From Candidatus Enterousia sp. (GTDB taxonomy: Bacteria > Pseudomonadota > Alphaproteobacteria > Rs-D84), in assembly GCA_045647355.1 (NCBI GenBank), contig JAZRMF010000005.1, forward strand, positions 165,763-229,762: a stretch of 64,000 bases of DNA. Reading direction: 5' to 3'. Below, one piece after another: positions 1,994 through 31,568 of the stretch (position 1 is the first letter of the stretch; every line of letters begins with the position of its first letter). Below the pieces are notes generated by a model. That model saw only the letters and a program-made list of their open reading frames with translations. It had not been told where the DNA came from and searched no databases. Position numbers and translations under genes: made by a program.

Positions 1994-3193
1994 ATGAAAA
2001 CCAAAGAACAAATTATTGATGAAATATTGGACCGTGGCGTTATTGTTGATATTCTGCCGTCGCGGGCGGAATTTAAACAGCGGTTATTAAATGAAAAACT
2101 GCGTTTTTTCATAGGGGCCGATCCAACGAATACGTCGTTGCATCTGTCACATGCGAAAAATTTTATGCTGTTGGAAGAATTTAGAAAACTGGGGCATGAA
2201 GTATTCGTACTGTTCGGTGATTTTACCGCATGCATTGGCGACCCCAGTGACCGTAATTCTGCACGCGCCCGTCTTACACCAGAACAAGTCCATGCGTTTT
2301 CGGCGGATTGGGTTCGGCAAATATCGCCAATTATCAATTTTAATGATGCCGACAATCCGGCGCATGTCGTGTTTAATGGCGAATGGTTGAATAAACTGAC
2401 TATGCGGGATTTGATAGATCTGGCGTCAAATACCACCGTTCAACATATGTTGGAACGTGATATGTTTCAAAAACGGATGGCCGAAAACCGACCTATTCAC
2501 CTGCACGAATTCCTGTACCCAATTTTCCAAGGATTTGATTCCGTGGCATTGGATGCCGACGTTGAATTGTGCGGTGTTGACCAGACATTTAATGCGCTGA
2601 TGGGGCGAACTTTGTTAAAGAAATTGAAAAACAAAGAAAAGTTTATCGTGTGCAATAATTTGATGGAAAACCCGATAACAGGCGAATTAATGTCTAAATC
2701 ACGTGGCACAGGTGTATTTTTAAATACAGATGCGAATACTATGTTTGGGCAAATAATGGCACAGCCCGACGAAATGATACGCATTTTCTTGATAAACAAT
2801 ACACGTGTTCCGTTGGATGAAATAGACGCATTGGATATTGAAAACAATCCAATGAACGCCAAGTTATTTACCGCACAAAAAATTGTGGAAATTTTCCATG
2901 GTACGGCGGCGGCAGATTCCGCACTTGCGCATTTCAAAAACACTTTTTCAAACAAAGTGTTTCCAGAAAACGCGCCAGAATTTGCAACCGATAAAGATGA
3001 ATTGTCCGTTATGGATATTCTACAAATTGGGATGAGTGCAGAATCAAAAGGCGAACTGCGACGATTGGTTTTACAAAATGCCGTTACGATAAACGATGAA
3101 AAAGTGGTTGATATAAATCAGACCATGCGTACAAATAAAACGTTGTTTGTTCGTGTCGGACGTAAAACTTTCTTTAAGGTCGCGCGTAAATAA
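1994..3193 (+). CDS. tyrS: Tyrosyl-tRNA synthetase
   Basis: Class I aaRS motifs GADPTNTSLHLSHA (HIGH-type) and LMSKS (KMSKS), plus a C-terminal S4-like region. 399 aa. Confidence 0.8.
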   Translation: MKTKEQIIDEILDRGVIVDILPSRAEFKQRLLNEKLRFFIGADPTNTSLHLSHAKNFMLLEEFRKLGHEVFVLFGDFTACIGDPSDRNSARARLTPEQVHAFSADWVRQISPIINFNDADNPAHVVFNGEWLNKLTMRDLIDLASNTTVQHMLERDMFQKRMAENRPIHLHEFLYPIFQGFDSVALDADVELCGVDQTFNALMGRTLLKKLKNKEKFIVCNNLMENPITGELMSKSRGTGVFLNTDANTMFGQIMAQPDEMIRIFLINNTRVPLDEIDALDIENNPMNAKLFTAQKIVEIFHGTAAADSALAHFKNTFSNKVFPENAPEFATDKDELSVMDILQIGMSAESKGELRRLVLQNAVTINDEKVVDINQTMRTNKTLFVRVGRKTFFKVARK

Positions 3194-3204
3194 ACGATTA
3201 ATCA

Positions 3205-3230
3205 AAGGCCCGGTTTTTGGGCCTTTGATA
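3205..3230. terminator. Bidirectional rho-independent terminator (GGCCCGGTTTTTGGGCC) between tyrS and the convergent 3233 gene
   Basis: GC hairpin flanked by A/T runs. Confidence 0.6.
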
Positions 3231-3232
3231 TA

Positions 3233-5455
3233 TTAATGGCAATAATTTTTGACAGCCGTTTGAACAACTGGTGTCATTTGGGGAATACTATAGGTGAGTG
3301 CAAATTCATCACGATTATCGTACGTTAACGTTACACCATTATGTGCGACCGTCATACCGTTTTCTGATTGTGTGACCGTTGTGCCATCCATAAACGATAT
3401 CAGGTTACAGCCATCTTTGGTATGCGAAAATGTTGTCGATATACTTACATTTGCCGTATTTTTGAATTTGAATTCTTTTATGCGACACATTGAATCCAAT
3501 GCCACATGATGGCGACGATCTATCAAAATGCTATCGCCTTTGCCAAAAGGAATCTTGGAACCACATTCCATATATTTTGTAACGCGTAAATCTGGACCTG
3601 TATATATTTTACTTCTGGCTGTTTGCAAAACATTTACACAATCTTTGATTGTATGCCACATAGTATGTTCATCCCAATTAATAGTTTGGGTTTGCAAATT
3701 AATAATTATCCCATTTGGTAATTTTACATTGGTGACCAATCCATTATAGACACCTATTTCCATGCCGTTTGGAAATGTATATTTACAATTTTCTATGGAC
3801 GGTCTGTTTTGATACAAGATTTTATGATTTTTAAAATCCAAATGTGCAACCAGGCCATCTTTGTGCGCATATTCATAAACCCCGTCACGTAATTTCGTCA
3901 CATCCGGCCCGACCGATATCAATGTATTCATTAATACCTGGGCATCTTGCAAAAACTGTTCTTCCTTGCTTAATAACAAATTGCGCAATTCTTTGCTGAA
4001 ATAATTATGACTAAGTTTATTACGCAACACGGCATAATCTTGCCATGTCTTGGATTCTTGGGGCGAAAGCAAGCCCAATTTTTTAATATGCTGCCATGCC
4101 TCGTAACTTCTTAGGTTGCGACCACGTGTCATACAATGTCGCATTACAATACAATCACTGGCATGGAACGTATTTAAAAATCTTGAACGGTTGCCGTAAT
4201 AATCTATGCCGATATCTCTACCATGTGACAGCGGGAAATCATCAACAATGTTTATTGTTGGTATAATCTTGCGCAGATTGCGATTAAGGCTCTTGTATTT
4301 ATCTGAGGCTATTGGATGATTTAATTCCACACCTGGACACATTGCATCGGGGTTGGCATATGCCGTACGCACCCGTTGAAAGAACTTGTTATTACTTTCC
4401 GATGTATCGCGAATCAATCGGTTTGGGCATATTTTACGCATTACATGTTGCATTTGGTGCAAAACATCGATATAGGCCTTCATCCGATAAATTGGCGTTT
4501 TATCACAGATTTTCAAATACGATTCCACATACGTAGAACGAATAATTTTATTTTTGTTTGCCTTGTCCGCATCAAAAAATCCCAATTCATCCAATGTGTC
4601 TAACTGATGCCGCATAAAGTTGCGGATATTAACATAATCTTTAAAATTATCGGCCGATGGGATAAGACCGTCGGATTCCGCCTGCTTTAATGCCGCGTCA
4701 CTATCGGCGGTGTCGTATATCTCACGACAAACAACCAATAATTTTTCGGCAAAAGATCCCAACAGTTCCAATATAATATTTTCATTTGCCACCACTTGTT
4801 CGGCCGCATATATATTTAAATACATGCGATTATAACTTTTTTCTGTGGCATCTTTATTTTGCCACAGGGCGTCTACCTGGGCTATATTTATGCTAAATTC
4901 GCCCAGCATATCGTTATTATAAATAAAATCTAGTAATGGCATATTGGCATTTTCTTTATCGATATATTTCATCTTGTAAATACCATCAACAAAGAAGTCT
5001 GTTTTACCCAATTCGGATGTCGGCGTATAGATAACCGTACAACGTTCAAGGTTAAACGGCAATTGCATGTTCAACGATGTAACAGTATACGGTGGAATAG
5101 CAAAATTTTTGAAATATCCATTGTTTTCATGTTGCTTGATATGATGCAGTATGACATATGCCCTATTTTCATCTTCATATTCATCATTATTTACAAAATT
5201 CACAAAATCCTGTCTATCCTGGGGGCTCATAGGCATTATTTGCCAACTGATTTTTGGGGCATCGGGATGCATACTTTCCAATTGTGAACACGCCAAGTCT
5301 TCAATGGACGCCAATTGCATCACACTCTCATGTGCACGCGCAAGATACAAAAAGTCCTCATATATGGCGATTAATTCGTCAATATGCTGTTTCGAAATAG
5401 ATTTGTATTTTTCGTCCATAGATTTTTTTATACACCCGTACCCCGTTATTGTCAA
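3233..5455 (-). CDS. Large hypothetical protein (740 aa) with no recognisable motifs; effector-like orphan
   Basis: Long intact ORF. The start may be at the internal Met near 5419. No conserved catalytic motifs recognised by eye. Confidence 0.5.
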   Translation of the reverse strand: MTITGYGCIKKSMDEKYKSISKQHIDELIAIYEDFLYLARAHESVMQLASIEDLACSQLESMHPDAPKISWQIMPMSPQDRQDFVNFVNNDEYEDENRAYVILHHIKQHENNGYFKNFAIPPYTVTSLNMQLPFNLERCTVIYTPTSELGKTDFFVDGIYKMKYIDKENANMPLLDFIYNNDMLGEFSINIAQVDALWQNKDATEKSYNRMYLNIYAAEQVVANENIILELLGSFAEKLLVVCREIYDTADSDAALKQAESDGLIPSADNFKDYVNIRNFMRHQLDTLDELGFFDADKANKNKIIRSTYVESYLKICDKTPIYRMKAYIDVLHQMQHVMRKICPNRLIRDTSESNNKFFQRVRTAYANPDAMCPGVELNHPIASDKYKSLNRNLRKIIPTINIVDDFPLSHGRDIGIDYYGNRSRFLNTFHASDCIVMRHCMTRGRNLRSYEAWQHIKKLGLLSPQESKTWQDYAVLRNKLSHNYFSKELRNLLLSKEEQFLQDAQVLMNTLISVGPDVTKLRDGVYEYAHKDGLVAHLDFKNHKILYQNRPSIENCKYTFPNGMEIGVYNGLVTNVKLPNGIIINLQTQTINWDEHTMWHTIKDCVNVLQTARSKIYTGPDLRVTKYMECGSKIPFGKGDSILIDRRHHVALDSMCRIKEFKFKNTANVSISTTFSHTKDGCNLISFMDGTTVTQSENGMTVAHNGVTLTYDNRDEFALTYSIPQMTPVVQTAVKNYCH

Positions 5456-26992: not shown

Positions 26993-28222
26993 TCAGAACG
27001 ACAACGAACCAAATGCATTTAACAATATGTCAAAATAGTTTTTGTCAGATTTTTGTGCCTTCAGCAAGCTTTTGTAGTGTGATAGCGCGGCATCCAACAG
27101 CTTATACTCTGATGGCGCGCATTCTGTTCTTTGCCTGTGATATTCATCATACAACCGTTTCACATCTGGTCTTTGATTAATTTTATGTGTTATATCCGCC
27201 AGCTGCTTTGCCGATAAATATTCATAGTTTGGATATTCTTCACGAATATATTTTAACTTTAAATCTTGATAAGCTTTTTCAGCCCGCCCCAAAGATTCAA
27301 AATATTTTTTATATTTTATACGCAACCCAGCAAGTTTCGTTTCTGCGTAATCTATTAAAATTTTTAATGCCTTGGTATAAAGTTCCGGTTTTTTTATTGC
27401 CTGCTCTATTAATATTTTTTCTAACTTGTCCATAACAATACAGCCAATACGGTAAGAACTGACCTCTGTTGGGTTGGACTCGTGGTCTATTAGTGAATAT
27501 ATCGGTTCTGAATACGCGGAAATTTGAGCCCCCAAACTTCCTAAATCAGGGTATTTTTTATCAATAAAGTGTCCGTATTCATGACTAATTGTACACATAA
27601 AGCCCAGAAAACCCATAAAATCATTATTTCTGAACATGGTTATTGTTGATTCACTATCATAGTATGCATTGCACTCGGTGGATTCGTATCCATAACCACT
27701 AATAATACTGCGTATCTTCATATAAAAATCAGCCAGCAAATCGATAATAGGTTGCTGATTTTTTTTATCCAGGTAACGAATCTTCAATTTATCATTGATT
27801 CCAAAATAATTATTTATCTCGTTCACAATCTTTAACGCAAGTTCTTGCCGCTGTTTTCGGTTCAAAGACTTAAATGTCCATGCAGCCAATAAAATATCAT
27901 CATCAGAACAAATAATTTGAGCATAGATATCCGCGTATTTTTGCGCGACCGTATCCATTGTATTTTTAGACATAGATTCTTTTAATTTAATCCGAAAATC
28001 ATCATCGGACAGGCCACCTGGTTTACGACGCCCTTTGTATATTTTGGCCAATTCCGGATTAAAAGTTGAAAATTCACCGACGATAGAATCCAACAACCCT
28101 GGGTCACGTTCCACCATTTCGGTAAATTCTTGTAAAGTTATATTGTTCGGCGCATACCTTTCATATATATCTTTAATCTTGCGTTTATTTATCATAATGA
28201 ATTTCCCTGCTATTAGTATCAT
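26993..28222 (-). CDS. Hypothetical protein with HExxH motif (TISHEYGHF); possible zincin-like metalloprotease/effector. Start probably at 28195 (MINKRK).
   Basis: Intact 400-aa ORF. The HEYGH motif is in a hydrophobic context. Confidence 0.45.
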   Translation of the reverse strand: MILIAGKFIMINKRKIKDIYERYAPNNITLQEFTEMVERDPGLLDSIVGEFSTFNPELAKIYKGRRKPGGLSDDDFRIKLKESMSKNTMDTVAQKYADIYAQIICSDDDILLAAWTFKSLNRKQRQELALKIVNEINNYFGINDKLKIRYLDKKNQQPIIDLLADFYMKIRSIISGYGYESTECNAYYDSESTITMFRNNDFMGFLGFMCTISHEYGHFIDKKYPDLGSLGAQISAYSEPIYSLIDHESNPTEVSSYRIGCIVMDKLEKILIEQAIKKPELYTKALKILIDYAETKLAGLRIKYKKYFESLGRAEKAYQDLKLKYIREEYPNYEYLSAKQLADITHKINQRPDVKRLYDEYHRQRTECAPSEYKLLDAALSHYKSLLKAQKSDKNYFDILLNAFGSLSF

Positions 28223-28473
28223 TCTACAATAGAAATGATATTAAAACAACAAATTCACATTGAACCATAGAAAATATAAATTTGCACCTATTATTCGACA
28301 TTTTATTTTTTGTAATACAATACAGATTGTACAGAAACAGAAAACAGAAGTAAAAAATGATATTCAACTGGAAAAAAGAAGAAAACGGGGATATAATCGT
28401 CACACCTGCGTTGCCTATGGGGCAGATTCTTTCGGTTGTATCCAGACAACATTAAAGCCACATAATAACAATA

Positions 28474-28499
28474 AAAATGCCCCGTTTGGGGCATTTTTC
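28474..28499. terminator. Terminator hairpin ATGCCCCGTTTGGGGCAT (first of three copies of one terminator family)
   Basis: Reverse-complement copies occur at 29431..29456 and 31545..31570. Confidence 0.5.
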
Positions 28500-28558
28500 A
28501 ATATTAAAGAAAAACCTTGAAAACCGAATATTTTAATGATAGACTGCATTTCGCACAT

Positions 28559-28636
28559 GGCGGATGTAGCTCAGCTGGTTAGAGCGTCGGTTTGTGGTAC
28601 CGAATGTCGCCGGTTCGAATCCGGTCATCCGCCCCA
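28559..28636 (+). tRNA. tRNA-His(GUG): tRNA-His(GUG) with G-1 and encoded CCA
   Basis: G-GCGGATG acceptor, anticodon loop TTGTGGT, T-arm GCCGG TTCGAAT CCGGT, 3' CATCCGC-C-CCA. Confidence 0.85.
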
Positions 28637-28706
28637 TAAAAAATCAAACCCGCCGTTGGCGTGGTTTATTTTTTATCTGGACGAATCCGGATTTGAACCG
28701 CAGGTG

Positions 28707-28810
28707 CGACACGATAGTTGATGAGAACAAGCGCCGGCGAAGTTCGAATCTTACGAGTGGAAGGGTCCCGACACGAAGTGTTGGGATGTGCAATCCGGTC
28801 ATCCGCCCCA
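28707..28810 (+). repeat. Copy A of a conserved ~105-nt tRNA-associated element ending in a 19-nt duplicate of the tRNA-His 3' end (AATCCGGTCATCCGCCCCA)
   Basis: Shares CGACACGATAGTTGAYGAGAACAAG...GTTCGARTCTTACGWGTGGAAGGGTCCC...TGGGATGTGCAATCC with 52457..52571. Confidence 0.7.
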
Positions 28811-28847
28811 TGAATTTGAGAATCCAGCCGAATGGGCTGGATTATAT

Positions 28848-29297
28848 TTATTTTTTCTTTTGTTTTGATAACCAATTTTCTTTCATACGTTTTACTGTTA
28901 AATTCTCGATAAGTTCATTGGCTTCTTTCGAATCATAGCTGCCGCCATTGCCACTAGTTTCTAACAATGTGAGTTTCATAAATCTCCGAACGACAACTTC
29001 ATGACCAGGCTCCACAGAAGGTAATAAATAATCATTGGACGTTCCAGTTATAGTGTATTCTAGGCCATATTTGGTTACAACCCGCGCATTTATATTACTA
29101 TAACCTCCATTTGCATCGCTGCTAACCACTCTGTTTACCCAAAGAACCAATACTGTATCCACTGATAGTTCTTTTTCTGCTTTTTCCGCGATTTTTTGTT
29201 CTTTTTTTGCCTTACGAAAATCTTGCGCTACGATCTCGGTTGGAATACAATTAGACAACCCGAGCGCCAACGCCAATAATAGTATTTTCTTTTTCAT
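28848..29297 (-). CDS. Small putative lipoprotein (about 150 aa; MKKKILLLALALGLSNC), located between two copies of the tRNA-His 3' end
   Basis: Signal peptide plus lipobox. Confidence 0.45.
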   Translation of the reverse strand: MKKKILLLALALGLSNCIPTEIVAQDFRKAKKEQKIAEKAEKELSVDTVLVLWVNRVVSSDANGGYSNINARVVTKYGLEYTITGTSNDYLLPSVEPGHEVVVRRFMKLTLLETSGNGGSYDSKEANELIENLTVKRMKENWLSKQKKK

Positions 29298-29397
29298 TTT
29301 TATCCTTTTAATTTTATGAACATATAATAGCACAAAAAAAATAAACTGTCAAGTACAAAAATGATTTTCGAGACACCAATCAGGAATAGGCCAAGGT

Positions 29398-29423
29398 TGT
29401 GTGCAATCCGGTCATCCGCCCCA
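29398..29423 (+). repeat. Third copy of the tRNA-His 3' end (TGTGTGCAATCCGGTCATCCGCCCCA), followed by a terminator
   Basis: Exact match to 28785..28810. Suggests a second att-like junction. Confidence 0.6.
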
Positions 29424-29454
29424 GGATTTAAAAATGCCCCAAACGGGGCATTTT

Positions 29455-30408
29455 TTAATCCTCGTCCAAGTTAACCAATTTATATTTCCGTGAACCGACA
29501 CCAATTTTTTCGGCCGCCTCTAATGTATGCAAGCCGTTACGATCAGCGATACGTTCCATCAGTTTTTTATTACCATCGGCATTGGACACCATATCTATAC
29601 CGGCCTGATCAATGGCAACCGGGTCGCGTGATACCAAAATACCAATATCATGAATATCTGGTTCGGCTGGGTTTGCATTACAATCGCAATCGATACTGAT
29701 TCTGTTTAATACATTGATATAAACCATATTGTCGCGTCCAACATAATCTGTAACCGCCTTGGATGCGTCTGCCATAGATTCCAAAAACGCATCTTGTTCA
29801 CCACCCCATGGATTATCTTTGGATGTGCCCCCACTGTGAATCCATGCCTTGCCCATGGACGATGCAAAACCAATAGAAATGTTTTTTAATGCGCCACCGA
29901 ATCCGGCCATCTGATGTCCCTTGAAATGCGATAAAACGACATATGACGGATAATTCGTAAAATGCGTTCCGACATAATTTTCGGTCAAACGATTTCCACC
30001 TTTGACGGGCAACGTCATACTGCCCTCTTCGTCCATGATATCAACAGGCGCGACATCCAAGAATCCACGTTCACGTATTGCCGCCCAATGTGATTTACTG
30101 TCGTTGCGGTTGCCGGCATAGGCAGTATTACATTCAACAATTGTACCGTCCAATTCTTCAATTAAATCTTTGATAAGTGTTGGTCGCAGATAGTTTGTCT
30201 TGGCGGATTCACCGGTACTCATTTTTACACCGACTTTCCCGGTTGGTTTCCAATTTAATGCATGATATGCACGAACCAAACCCGCGGGCGAAATATCACG
30301 TGTAAAATATACAACCGGCACATCATTCGAAGCGGTTGCATAATGCAAACCAACCCCTGTCGTAATTACAGCCGCAGCACCCAATGCCGCAATAGTTGAT
30401 TTTTTCAT
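29455..30408 (-). CDS. Secreted DUF362-like domain protein (317 aa)
   Basis: Signal peptide MKKSTIAALGAAAVITTGVG. A conserved C-terminal CDCN motif region is typical of DUF362 by memory. Confidence 0.4.
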   Translation of the reverse strand: MKKSTIAALGAAAVITTGVGLHYATASNDVPVVYFTRDISPAGLVRAYHALNWKPTGKVGVKMSTGESAKTNYLRPTLIKDLIEELDGTIVECNTAYAGNRNDSKSHWAAIRERGFLDVAPVDIMDEEGSMTLPVKGGNRLTENYVGTHFTNYPSYVVLSHFKGHQMAGFGGALKNISIGFASSMGKAWIHSGGTSKDNPWGGEQDAFLESMADASKAVTDYVGRDNMVYINVLNRISIDCDCNANPAEPDIHDIGILVSRDPVAIDQAGIDMVSNADGNKKLMERIADRNGLHTLEAAEKIGVGSRKYKLVNLDED

Positions 30409-30421
30409 ACTGTATCCTTTT

Positions 30422-31441
30422 TTATTTTAAATTTGTTTTAAAGAATTGTTCCAGTTTATCAAATGGTATCTTTTCCATATTGTCGTATAAATCAACATGG
30501 TTTGCACCTGGAATAATCATTAACTCTTTGTTATCGCCGGTAAGTTTAGCAAATGCACCTTCGCTAAAATAACGACTGTGGGCCTTTTCACCGTGTATCA
30601 GTAATACAGGAGTGCGAATTTCATGTGCATATTGCAACAACGGCATGTTGATAAACGACAAAGAACTTGTTTTGTTCCAACCACCATTTGAATTCAATGA
30701 ACGTTTATGATATCCGCGTGGTGTTTTGTAATACGCATAATAATCTTTAACAAATTGTGGTGCATCATCTGGCAATGGATCAACCACACCGCCAGCCAAT
30801 TCGTACTCGCCGTTTTTATAGTCAATCGTGCGTTGTTCGTTCAATGATTTTTTATTTGCAAAACGTGCATCTGCGTTATCATCTGCGTCAAAATATCCAT
30901 TTGCATTTACGCGCGTCATATCATACATGGTTGATGCGACTGTTGCCTTGATACGTGTATCCATAGCGGCCGCATTAATCGCCATGCCCCCCCAGCCACA
31001 GATACCAATAATACCAATTTTTTCTGCATCGACATCTTTGCGATTTGCCAGATAATCAACCGCAGCCGAAAAATCTTCGGTGTTTATATCGGGTGATGCC
31101 ACATAACGAACATTTCCACCACTTTCACCAGTAAACGATGGATCAAATGCCAATGTTATAAATCCACGTGATGCCATTTCTTGGGCATACAGACCAGACG
31201 ATTGTTCTTTAACCGCGCCAAATGGACCGGACACCGCAATTGCAGGCATTTTGTCGGCGGTTTTCTTTTTCGGCATATATAAATCACCGGTAAGTTCTAT
31301 TCCGTACCGATTATGAAAATGTACTTTCTGTGTGATAACTTCGGGATTCTTGGGAAACACATTATCCCATCTATTTCCGGAAAACATAAAGTATCCAGCG
31401 ATTCCAAGTATGATGATTGCCAGTATAATTGTCCATTTCAT
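30422..31441 (-). CDS. Alpha/beta-hydrolase (dienelactone-hydrolase-like, possible Cys nucleophile GICGWGG) with N-terminal membrane anchor
   Basis: GIIGICGWGGMA nucleophile elbow. 339 aa. Confidence 0.55.
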   Translation of the reverse strand: MKWTIILAIIILGIAGYFMFSGNRWDNVFPKNPEVITQKVHFHNRYGIELTGDLYMPKKKTADKMPAIAVSGPFGAVKEQSSGLYAQEMASRGFITLAFDPSFTGESGGNVRYVASPDINTEDFSAAVDYLANRKDVDAEKIGIIGICGWGGMAINAAAMDTRIKATVASTMYDMTRVNANGYFDADDNADARFANKKSLNEQRTIDYKNGEYELAGGVVDPLPDDAPQFVKDYYAYYKTPRGYHKRSLNSNGGWNKTSSLSFINMPLLQYAHEIRTPVLLIHGEKAHSRYFSEGAFAKLTGDNKELMIIPGANHVDLYDNMEKIPFDKLEQFFKTNLK

Positions 31442-31568
31442 TTTTGACTCCTTTCACTTTGCAACATACAGAATATACGAAAGTTTTGCAAGTGAATAAC
31501 TTGAATACTCCATACGGCATCTTTGGCGGCGGCCAATGAATTTAAAAATGCCCCAAACGGGGCATTTT

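Follow-up and report, generated by a model that had tools for sequence, protein, structure and literature searches.

Since 1978 the RtT element has been a curiosity of the Escherichia coli tyrT operon. Egan and Landy in 1978 and Rossi et al. in 1981 reportedly described it as a 178-bp repeat present in 3.14 copies at the tyrT-tyrV locus, and Bosl and Kersten are said to have found in 1991 that an RtT RNA is freed from the tRNA operon transcript. Here we describe RtT-like units in a stretch of 64,000 nucleotides of an alphaproteobacterium, Candidatus Enterousia sp. (assembly GCA_045647355.1, contig JAZRMF010000005.1, positions 165,763 to 229,762; the whole stretch is called the window below), where they form an array directly behind a tRNA-His gene. 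RtT RNAs have been reported to be released from tRNA operon transcripts on processing and have been loosely tied to the stringent and stress responses (PMC4986893; bioRxiv 10.1101/2024.07.17.603846), and members of the family adjoin tRNA-Asn and tRNA-Lys genes in Pasteurellaceae (PMC4986893).

An initial annotation of the window had noted two tandem units behind tRNA-His, one of 176 bp and one of about 610 bp, each ending in a copy of the tRNA 3′ end, and had read both as att-site duplications left by small integrase-less elements or by collapsed islands. We consider it likely that the array consists of RtT-type tRNA-operon trailer units and is the alphaproteobacterial counterpart of the 178-bp repeats of E. 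coli tyrT. The 176-bp unit is probably not the scar of a vanished mobile element or collapsed island but a conserved, folded RNA-like module, and the longer unit, of 613 bp, is a genuine small gene insertion with a copy of the tRNA-like end on either side.

The tRNA-His locus and its repeated 3′ end

The window holds four tRNA genes as judged by ARAGORN and the Rfam tRNA model. One of these, tRNA-His (GTG), lies at 28560–28636 on the + strand, has an encoded G-1 and CCA, and scores 68.8 bits with the Rfam model; its transcription unit has a candidate sigma70-like promoter (TTGAAA-17-TAGACT, 28517–28545, + strand), a match to the consensus only. The 19-mer AATCCGGTCATCCGCCCCA, which runs from A58 of the T-loop through CCA, occurs exactly three times in the 64 kb, at 28618, 28792 and 29405, always on the + strand and without mismatch, with start-to-start spacings of 174 and 613 bp. 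On shuffled sequence the mean was 0.04 matches, and in 100 shuffles a count of three was never attained. Copies 2 and 3 have 24 nt in common (TGTGCAATCCGGTCATCCGCCCCA, that is, TGTGC plus the 19-mer, at 28787–28810 and 29400–29423), which exceeds the match of either to the tRNA.

The layout that the initial annotation had given for the locus is confirmed by these results, both in the exact 19-nt duplicate of the tRNA-His 3′ end, which recurs about 600 bp further on, and in the other parts it had listed. A conserved block follows the tRNA-His terminator (28679–28791, about 113 nt, with the 3′ end GGGATGTGC plus AATCC), a small lipoprotein-like gene, a 149-aa minus-strand open reading frame (ORF), lies between copies 2 and 3, and each of the three copies is followed by a hairpin with a T-run. 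The first of these hairpins, T1 (28636–28676), is an inverted repeat between the tRNA and unit 1 that has an A-tract as well as a T-tract, as in terminators of the bidirectional type. T2 (28821–28843, + strand) is a 9-bp stem followed by a T-run, and T3 (29423–29462) is again an inverted repeat, with the core AAATGCCCC-N4-GGGGCATTT.

Unit 1 and its fold

The 174-bp repeat unit is made up of a terminator and a 132-nt block, here called unit 1 (28679–28810, + strand). It belongs to class I, type A, by covariation and by its score of 122.8 bits with R1, a covariance model of class I made from a hand-drawn structure. From 5′ to 3′ it comprises a 5′ closing strand (28679–28692), hairpin P2′ (28695–28707), the junction helix P5 with the irregular hairpin P3 (28710–28759), a conserved GGAAGGG, the variable hairpin P4 (28767–28785) and the 3′ closing strand, which is the second copy of the tRNA-His 19-mer (28792–28810, + strand). 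The 5′ end of the block is complementary to this 19-mer, and in the model the closing helix would imitate the acceptor/T-stem stack of tRNA-His.

Covariation supports the fold. RNAalifold, run on a MAFFT-based alignment of 19 class I units, gave 11 pairs with compensatory changes. Over the 22 best R1 class I matches, in an alignment that was fitted to R1 and so somewhat favours the structure, 88.3% of cells were paired vs 78.8% in column shuffles, 19 pairs were changed on both sides (a number reached by none of 500 shuffles), and the covariation score was 0.283 vs 0.117 in shuffles; the MAFFT-based result agrees in direction. As a control, partners were slid by 1–3 columns, and pairing fell to 28–46%. 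Closing helices 1 and 2 were 76.5% and 89.9% paired, in an ambiguous register and with a 3′ strand that is invariant within the His set. The class II consensus has seven compensatory pairs by RNAalifold, including a long-range helix that appears as GCAAAA/UUUUGC, GUAAAA/UUUUAC or AAUAUUG/CAAUAUU.

Three features favour the + strand as the one that folds: a sister type has Watson-Crick pairs in place of the tandem G.A pairs of P3, the GAAA loops fall on the + strand, and the internal helices hold 11 G.U against 5 A.C. Readings on the minus strand (a 5′ end like that of transfer-messenger RNA (tmRNA), GGGGCGGAUG; a G3.U70 acceptor; a retroviral-type primer-binding site) were dropped, since the GNRA loops, the tandem G.A pairs and most G.U pairs are on the + strand; ARAGORN and Rfam found no tmRNA in the window. 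We also rejected a coding reading, with a minus-strand ATG from CCCCAT, because the base after CCA varies among loci, and a hammerhead-like reading of UGAUGAG...GAA, as the motif is the internal tandem G.A in a hairpin and lacks a three-way junction. A match of the Rfam family STnc430 at locus L010 (41 bits, threshold 47) was set aside as terminator-driven. An intact T-arm with a T-loop insertion (GCCGGTTCGA ... AATCCGGT) is possible in some units; in most, GGTTC pairs with an invariant GAACC.

Unit 1 of the window is a chimera in which an E-type 5′ part and an A-type body are joined in GAACCG, and this joint points to a homologous crossover. The motif GTGCAATCC, in which the initial annotation saw a mimic of the T-loop and hence a hint of T-loop-targeted recombination, turns out to be the conserved 3′ junction of the family, with GAGTAATCC as its E. 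coli counterpart, and is not evidence for such recombination.

Similarity to RtT of E. coli

For comparison we used a 2.7-kb segment of the E. coli chromosome (NC_000913, 1285500–1288200) in which the repeat is annotated as rttR. In both genomes the units lie directly 3′ of a tRNA gene and on its strand. Spacings are 175 and 178 bp in E. coli, 174 bp in the window and 158–208 bp in its relatives, where up to four units stand in tandem. The E. coli units end in AATCCTTCCCCCACCACCA, 19 nt from A58 to CCA (AATCC plus 14 nt), and this is the same boundary as that of AATCCGGTCATCCGCCCCA. Their 5′ strand, GGGGAAGG, is complementary to the tRNA-like end in the Rfam consensus, and the 5′ strand is G-rich here too. 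Short boxes come in the same order, GGATGAGAAC(C), GGTTCGA, CGAGAGAAC, GAAGGG and TAATCC, with GAGAAC also common; most relatives have GGAUGAGAAC and GGUUCGA close to the 5′ end as well as UAAUCC ahead of the tRNA part.

The covariance models find each other, at low scores. When R1 was run on the 2.7-kb E. coli locus, its four best matches were the four RtT copies, each at full length (12.6–16.8 bits, E 0.001–0.014). In the other direction, the Rfam RtT model (RF00391) was the best of 4227 families for the unit of locus L021, at 17.3 bits and E 0.28 vs a gathering threshold of 45 bits. R2, the class II model, barely detects E. coli RtT. Because the model matches are weak, homology with RtT rests mainly on the architecture and the short boxes.

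In the proposed model, each terminator-like hairpin is followed on the tRNA strand by a module of about 130 nt with a multi-helix fold, which would be closed by pairing of its 5′ strand with a 3′ strand in which the T-stem and acceptor 3′ strand of the neighbouring tRNA are copied together with its discriminator and CCA. The minihelix-like end and the analogy with RtT suggest that the unit would be co-transcribed with the tRNA through read-through of the intervening hairpin, and that the tRNA-processing machinery would cut out a stable small RNA of about 132 nt, with RNase P acting at the 5′ side and 3′ trimming to CCA.

Units in related genomes

One genome per species was scanned for the 19-mer preceded by any base but G (H+19-mer), which gave 41 loci. 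Thirty-three of these come from about 31 metagenome-assembled genomes (MAGs) of gut and rumen Alphaproteobacteria, Candidatus Enterousia and relatives, and a metagenome scan added more. In the relatives the pseudo-copy lies 158–208 nt past the end of tRNA-His, arrays have 1–4 units, and in 24 of the 26 genome loci where the tRNA is visible a unit is found at most 215 nt from it. A unit has two parts, a hairpin of about 40 nt that resembles a terminator and a block of 125–165 nt. At least three body classes can be told apart among the blocks: class I, which includes the window unit, class II (types C, D and E) and class III, which is longer and has only 16 nt in common with the tRNA end. Typically two classes are combined in one genome. 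The block is thus conserved DNA behind tRNA-His in about 31 species-level genomes, among which the 174-bp unit varies only in array copy number, and this conservation runs counter to the view of the 176-bp unit as an att duplication. A literature search for tRNA-His-linked tRNA-like RNAs in Alphaproteobacteria found nothing relevant.

Several of these loci deserve individual mention. At L008 (178–690) four 164-bp units with identical terminators stand in perfect tandem, which resembles the 178 bp × 3.14 array of E. coli; the last two have four changes in the 19-mer. At L016 and L042 the resident tRNA-His has U66 (a G7.U66 wobble) and the adjoining unit keeps the canonical C, so the end of the unit is not simply copied from the neighbouring tRNA. 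Proteins of a 168–214-aa family without a Pfam match lie on one or both sides of the tRNA-His arrays of L014, L021, L023, L031, L033, L036, L049 and L050 (for example, L036, reverse strand, 4025–4531). In L012, a complete 0.96-Mb MAG chromosome (OZ007020.1), a class III unit has its 3′ end interrupted by a 1.95-kb insert (2394–4330; CCGGTCATCC before it, CCGCCCCA after it); this insert encodes a 151-aa secreted protein and a Mu-F/GH108 fusion protein, and a podovirus-type portal gene lies 0.5 kb past the last 19-mer.

Units behind tRNA-Lys and tRNA-Ser

The window contains a second RtT-like class I unit, at 52430–52571 on the + strand (full-length R1 match, 87 bits, E 7.5e-18), behind tRNA-Lys (TTT; 52313–52388, + strand) and a terminator at 52389–52425. 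It starts 42 nt past tRNA-Lys, as unit 1 starts 43 nt past tRNA-His, and both units are on the strand of their tRNA. Its body is the same as that of unit 1, including GGGATGTGCAA, and it finishes with a copy of the final 17 nt of tRNA-Lys (52555–52571; TCCCTGTGGCCCCACCA, also found at 52372). The 5′ strand, GGGGTAAC, is complementary to the Lys-type acceptor 3′ strand. We also note that this unit has its own terminators on both sides.

When 5′ and 3′ strands were paired with one another, the cognate duplex was the most stable in its row for the His units, the Lys unit (narrowly) and the E. coli Tyr units; it was not the best for a degenerate Ser-linked unit of L003. Since both strands of the Lys unit are of the Lys type and the cognate duplexes are the best ones for the His, Lys and Tyr units, the closing helix appears to track the neighbouring tRNA. 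The Ser-linked unit (L003, 2240–2390, minus strand) follows tRNA-Ser(TGA), is class-I-like, and ends in a mutated tRNA-Ser 3′ end, TCCTTCACCATCCGTCA, with no terminator behind it.

The 613-bp cassette

The segment 28811–29423 is present or absent as a block (an indel relative to L005) and consists of terminator T2, the lipoprotein-like gene, a unit remnant and the third 19-mer. The gene (28848–29297, minus strand, start ATG at 29297) is an orphan whose 149-aa product begins MKKKILLLALALGLSNC; the protein has no Pfam match and just two homolog clusters among 5.8 billion proteins. Its candidate promoter, TTGACA-17-TATTAT with a TG extension, matches the consensus at 11 of 12 positions (29324–29352, minus strand). 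The remnant, GGTTGTGTGC, is the last 10 nt of an A-type unit and with the third 19-mer occupies 29395–29423 (+ strand).

The cassette begins right past CCCCA, and the 24-nt repeats bound the indel. L065 and L005 form an occupied and empty pair with near-identical flanks: the former has the cassette between an A unit and the downstream flank, and the latter has the same flank and an A-type unit without the cassette. This is the presence/absence polymorphism that the initial annotation had suggested looking for among related tRNA-His loci. The cassette is found in other contexts elsewhere. In L064 it stands behind an E-type unit and ahead of a PemK toxin gene, and in L063 a 77% homolog of the lipoprotein has as its right boundary a different tRNA-like end, AATCTGGTCGCCAGTACCA. 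The segment 28618–29423 (808 bp) runs from the 19-mer of the tRNA through the unit to the end of the cassette. It shares 96.5% identity with L036, as against about 75% for the recG flank, and the homology with L036 stops exactly at CCCCA, with unrelated DNA downstream. Comparison of these loci thus indicates that the cassette is gained, lost and exchanged between genomes at the repeats. The att-like reading of the initial annotation is therefore supported for the unit of about 610 bp, with its precise indel, direct repeats and varied contexts, and is not supported for the 176-bp unit, which is conserved, covaries and has a sister behind tRNA-Lys.

Every unit ends in the same 19–24 nt, which makes the array rich in short direct repeats, and we propose that units and neighbouring genes would be gained, lost and exchanged by recombination at these repeats, the 613-bp cassette being one such segment. 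Deletions between 19-mers in an L036-like array (E unit, A unit, cassette) could produce all the cassette arrangements, and the identical right boundary in four contexts also fits a Campbell-type insertion of a circle. The cassette may thus have entered either as a circle with a recombinase supplied in trans, for which the predicted circular junction would be ...GGTTGTGTGCAATCCGGTCATCCGCCCCA|TGAATTTGAG..., or by homology-facilitated recombination and deletions between 19-mers.

Other genes near the array also differ among relatives. The core of T3 is present three times in the window (28475–28496, with an inverted loop; 29432–29453; 31546–31567), and the DUF362 and S15-hydrolase genes (29458–31540) lie between two direct copies of it. 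They are missing in L062, where the 19-mer and the terminator are followed directly by mscL. On the other side of tRNA-His, the segment 26980–28510 holds a 409-aa ORF (26993–28222, minus strand) with an HEYGH (HExxH) motif and no Pfam family, and a small ORF at 28357–28455; it is absent in L005 and L036, where recG abuts tRNA-His. A homolog of the 409-aa protein adjoins the lipoprotein homolog in L063, and these two orphan genes seem to travel together. No exact-protein matches were found to the DUF362 protein or the 409-aa protein of the window. Beyond the array of L064 (reverse strand, 950–1480), the PemK-type toxin gene is followed by a stretch of about 100 nt that has a consensus promoter at one boundary and a terminator at the other. 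It is a candidate small RNA and recurs in L063.

Alternative explanations

Several points weigh against counting the array as RtT-type trailer units. The main unexplained one is that an intrinsic-terminator-like hairpin stands before every unit, with no promoter behind the hairpin: a consensus scan of the window found none directly before the unit, so that expression would depend on read-through. The window's own unit has variant boxes, GGATTTGAAC and GGTGCGAC (as RNA, GGAUUUGAAC, GGUGCGAC and GCAAUCC), the Rfam RtT model gives no match on it even at E<=10, and the reciprocal matches between R1 and RtT are weak and would not be significant genome-wide. Several segments are able to pair with the 3′ strand, which leaves the closing-helix register ambiguous, and covariation would be kept equally by a folded single-stranded DNA site. 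Finally, since only loci with the 19-mer were collected, the family's frequency in the clade comes out too high, and one distant relative, L034, has no unit.

Among the alternatives, we regard as unlikely that both units are attL/attR-type duplications from successive integrations at the tRNA-His 3′ end by elements that lost their integrase or were non-autonomous. Direct repeats of the tRNA 3′ end do bound both units, the 613-bp unit has its presence/absence polymorphism, exact boundaries and an identity like that of horizontally transferred DNA, the locus is a hot spot of variable genes, and L012 has phage genes beside its array. However, there is no integrase in the window array, whose neighbours are the 409-aa protein without Pfam family, the lipoprotein, DUF362, S15 hydrolase and recG, and no recombinase among the array-flanking families checked in relatives (flavodoxin, YjbR, Mu-F/GH108 fusion, leucine-rich repeat protein, LPG synthase and phage portal), a check that took in some of the ORFs of these loci. 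None of 2.9 million viral contigs has the 19-mer, phage and plasmid collections gave no match to the region, and no attP-like copy turned up in any of them. Nor do att arms explain why the 176-bp unit is conserved in about 31 species, its helices covarying and its 5′ strand pairing with the repeat. The same body stands behind tRNA-Lys with Lys-type ends, and E. coli RtT has the same anatomy without any island. A separate scan of the viral contigs for the motif GAGAACC-N2-10-GGTTCGAC gave at least 120 loci, of which 100 were scanned with R1 and none matched at E<=0.1; they look like chance matches and were discarded.

A bolder extension of RtT-type units, which we find doubtful, would make them self-propagating modules matched to tRNA ends. 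Each would bear a copy of the acceptor/T minihelix of its tRNA. They would either recombine into tRNA 3′ ends, by way of a folded strand or a host recombinase, and so build arrays and ferry small genes, like that of the lipoprotein cassette, between species, or be charged or bound by enzymes like histidyl-tRNA synthetase as a decoy or sensor.

It is improbable that the units are integron-like modules or modules like miniature inverted-repeat transposable elements, in which the 5′ strand and the tRNA-like 3′ strand would be terminal inverted repeats of a recombination site, folded in single-stranded DNA and targeting tRNA 3′ ends, with the lipoprotein gene as cargo. Such modules would have inverted-repeat ends with bulged bases, as these do, and would account for heterogeneous unit arrays directly behind a fixed site, for units of different class swapped between genomes (the window vs L036 and L064), for ends that match whichever tRNA stands before them, and for conservation of structure and not of sequence. 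Yet no recombinase is linked to the arrays among the genes checked, most such "cassettes" would hold just a terminator, and the lipoprotein cassette lacks a folded part; the GNRA loops and the tandem G.A pairs speak for RNA, and the chimeric unit of the window is best explained by a homologous crossover in GAACCG.

That the units are tandem copies of the tRNA-His gene in decay, pseudogenes with only the 3′ end still tRNA-like, is very improbable in spite of a unit of about 174 bp that is close to the length of a tRNA plus spacer, a 5′ strand (GGACGGGT or GCGGATGA) that resembles the acceptor 5′ strand of tRNA-His (GGCGGATG) and a GCCGGTTCGA stretch that resembles the T-arm, since ARAGORN and the Rfam tRNA model find the four true tRNAs only and no cloverleaf in the units, the body has conserved helices with compensatory changes in place of a D arm or anticodon arm, and neutral decay would not leave the 19-mer exact in dozens of species, even beside the U66 tRNAs of L016 and L042. 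Duplication of a tRNA may well be the evolutionary origin of the units.

Relation to known systems

The array shares with tRNA-targeting islands and their integrase-less derivatives (cis-mobilizable elements, tandem att accretion) a tRNA 3′-end repeat that bounds an insert, the polymorphism of the 613-bp segment and the tandem placement of inserts. It differs in having no integrase, no attP source and a size of only 0.17–0.6 kb, and in a repeat that is intrinsic to a conserved structured module and is present also without an insert. This matters for annotation: a short exact copy of a tRNA 3′ end that lies behind a tRNA gene is commonly taken for an att scar, and here most such copies belong to an RNA-like module. 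The same copies demonstrably act as breakpoints at which small accessory genes are gained, lost and exchanged horizontally.

Like integron cassettes with their attC sites, the units form heterogeneous module arrays behind a fixed site and have imperfect inverted-repeat ends in which structure and not sequence is conserved; unlike them, they come with no integron integrase, their body has several helices and is not a simple hairpin, and most modules are geneless. In tmRNA, in YrlA (the bacterial Y-RNA-like RNA) and in the stable RNAs C and D of phage T4, a terminal helix likewise imitates a tRNA acceptor end with CCA, and that acceptor-like end recruits tRNA-processing enzymes; the genes of RNAs C and D also lie inside a tRNA transcription unit. 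None of these families has an Rfam match here, and the units mimic the neighbouring tRNA, not tRNA-Ala. In further contrast to tmRNA and YrlA, the units have neither a tag reading frame nor a linked Ro or SmpB gene.

RtT remains the closest relative in design, and the differences from it are several. The host is alphaproteobacterial; there are at least three distinct body classes; linkage is to tRNA-His, tRNA-Lys and tRNA-Ser, not tRNA-Tyr; an intrinsic-terminator-like hairpin lies between units, whereas the E. coli spacer, of about 60 nt, is free of hairpins; no conserved tpr-like ORF is present; and the units of an array are heterogeneous, whereas in E. coli they are near-identical. The window unit is also far below the Rfam threshold. 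Because the model links are weak, though reciprocal, we call the units RtT-like and treat them as a divergent variant outside RF00391.

Elements of this kind are known, and what is new here is the clade of the hosts, the presence of three body classes that covary, linkage to tRNA-His, tRNA-Lys and tRNA-Ser, a closing helix that appears to follow the neighbouring tRNA, and the use of the units as breakpoints for gene exchange. An RtT-like design is indicated in the reduced genomes of gut Alphaproteobacteria, where it has diversified into several covarying classes, and these units offer a much richer alignment for work on RtT structure and function. Its occurrence in both groups argues that the design is ancient or has been repeatedly selected.

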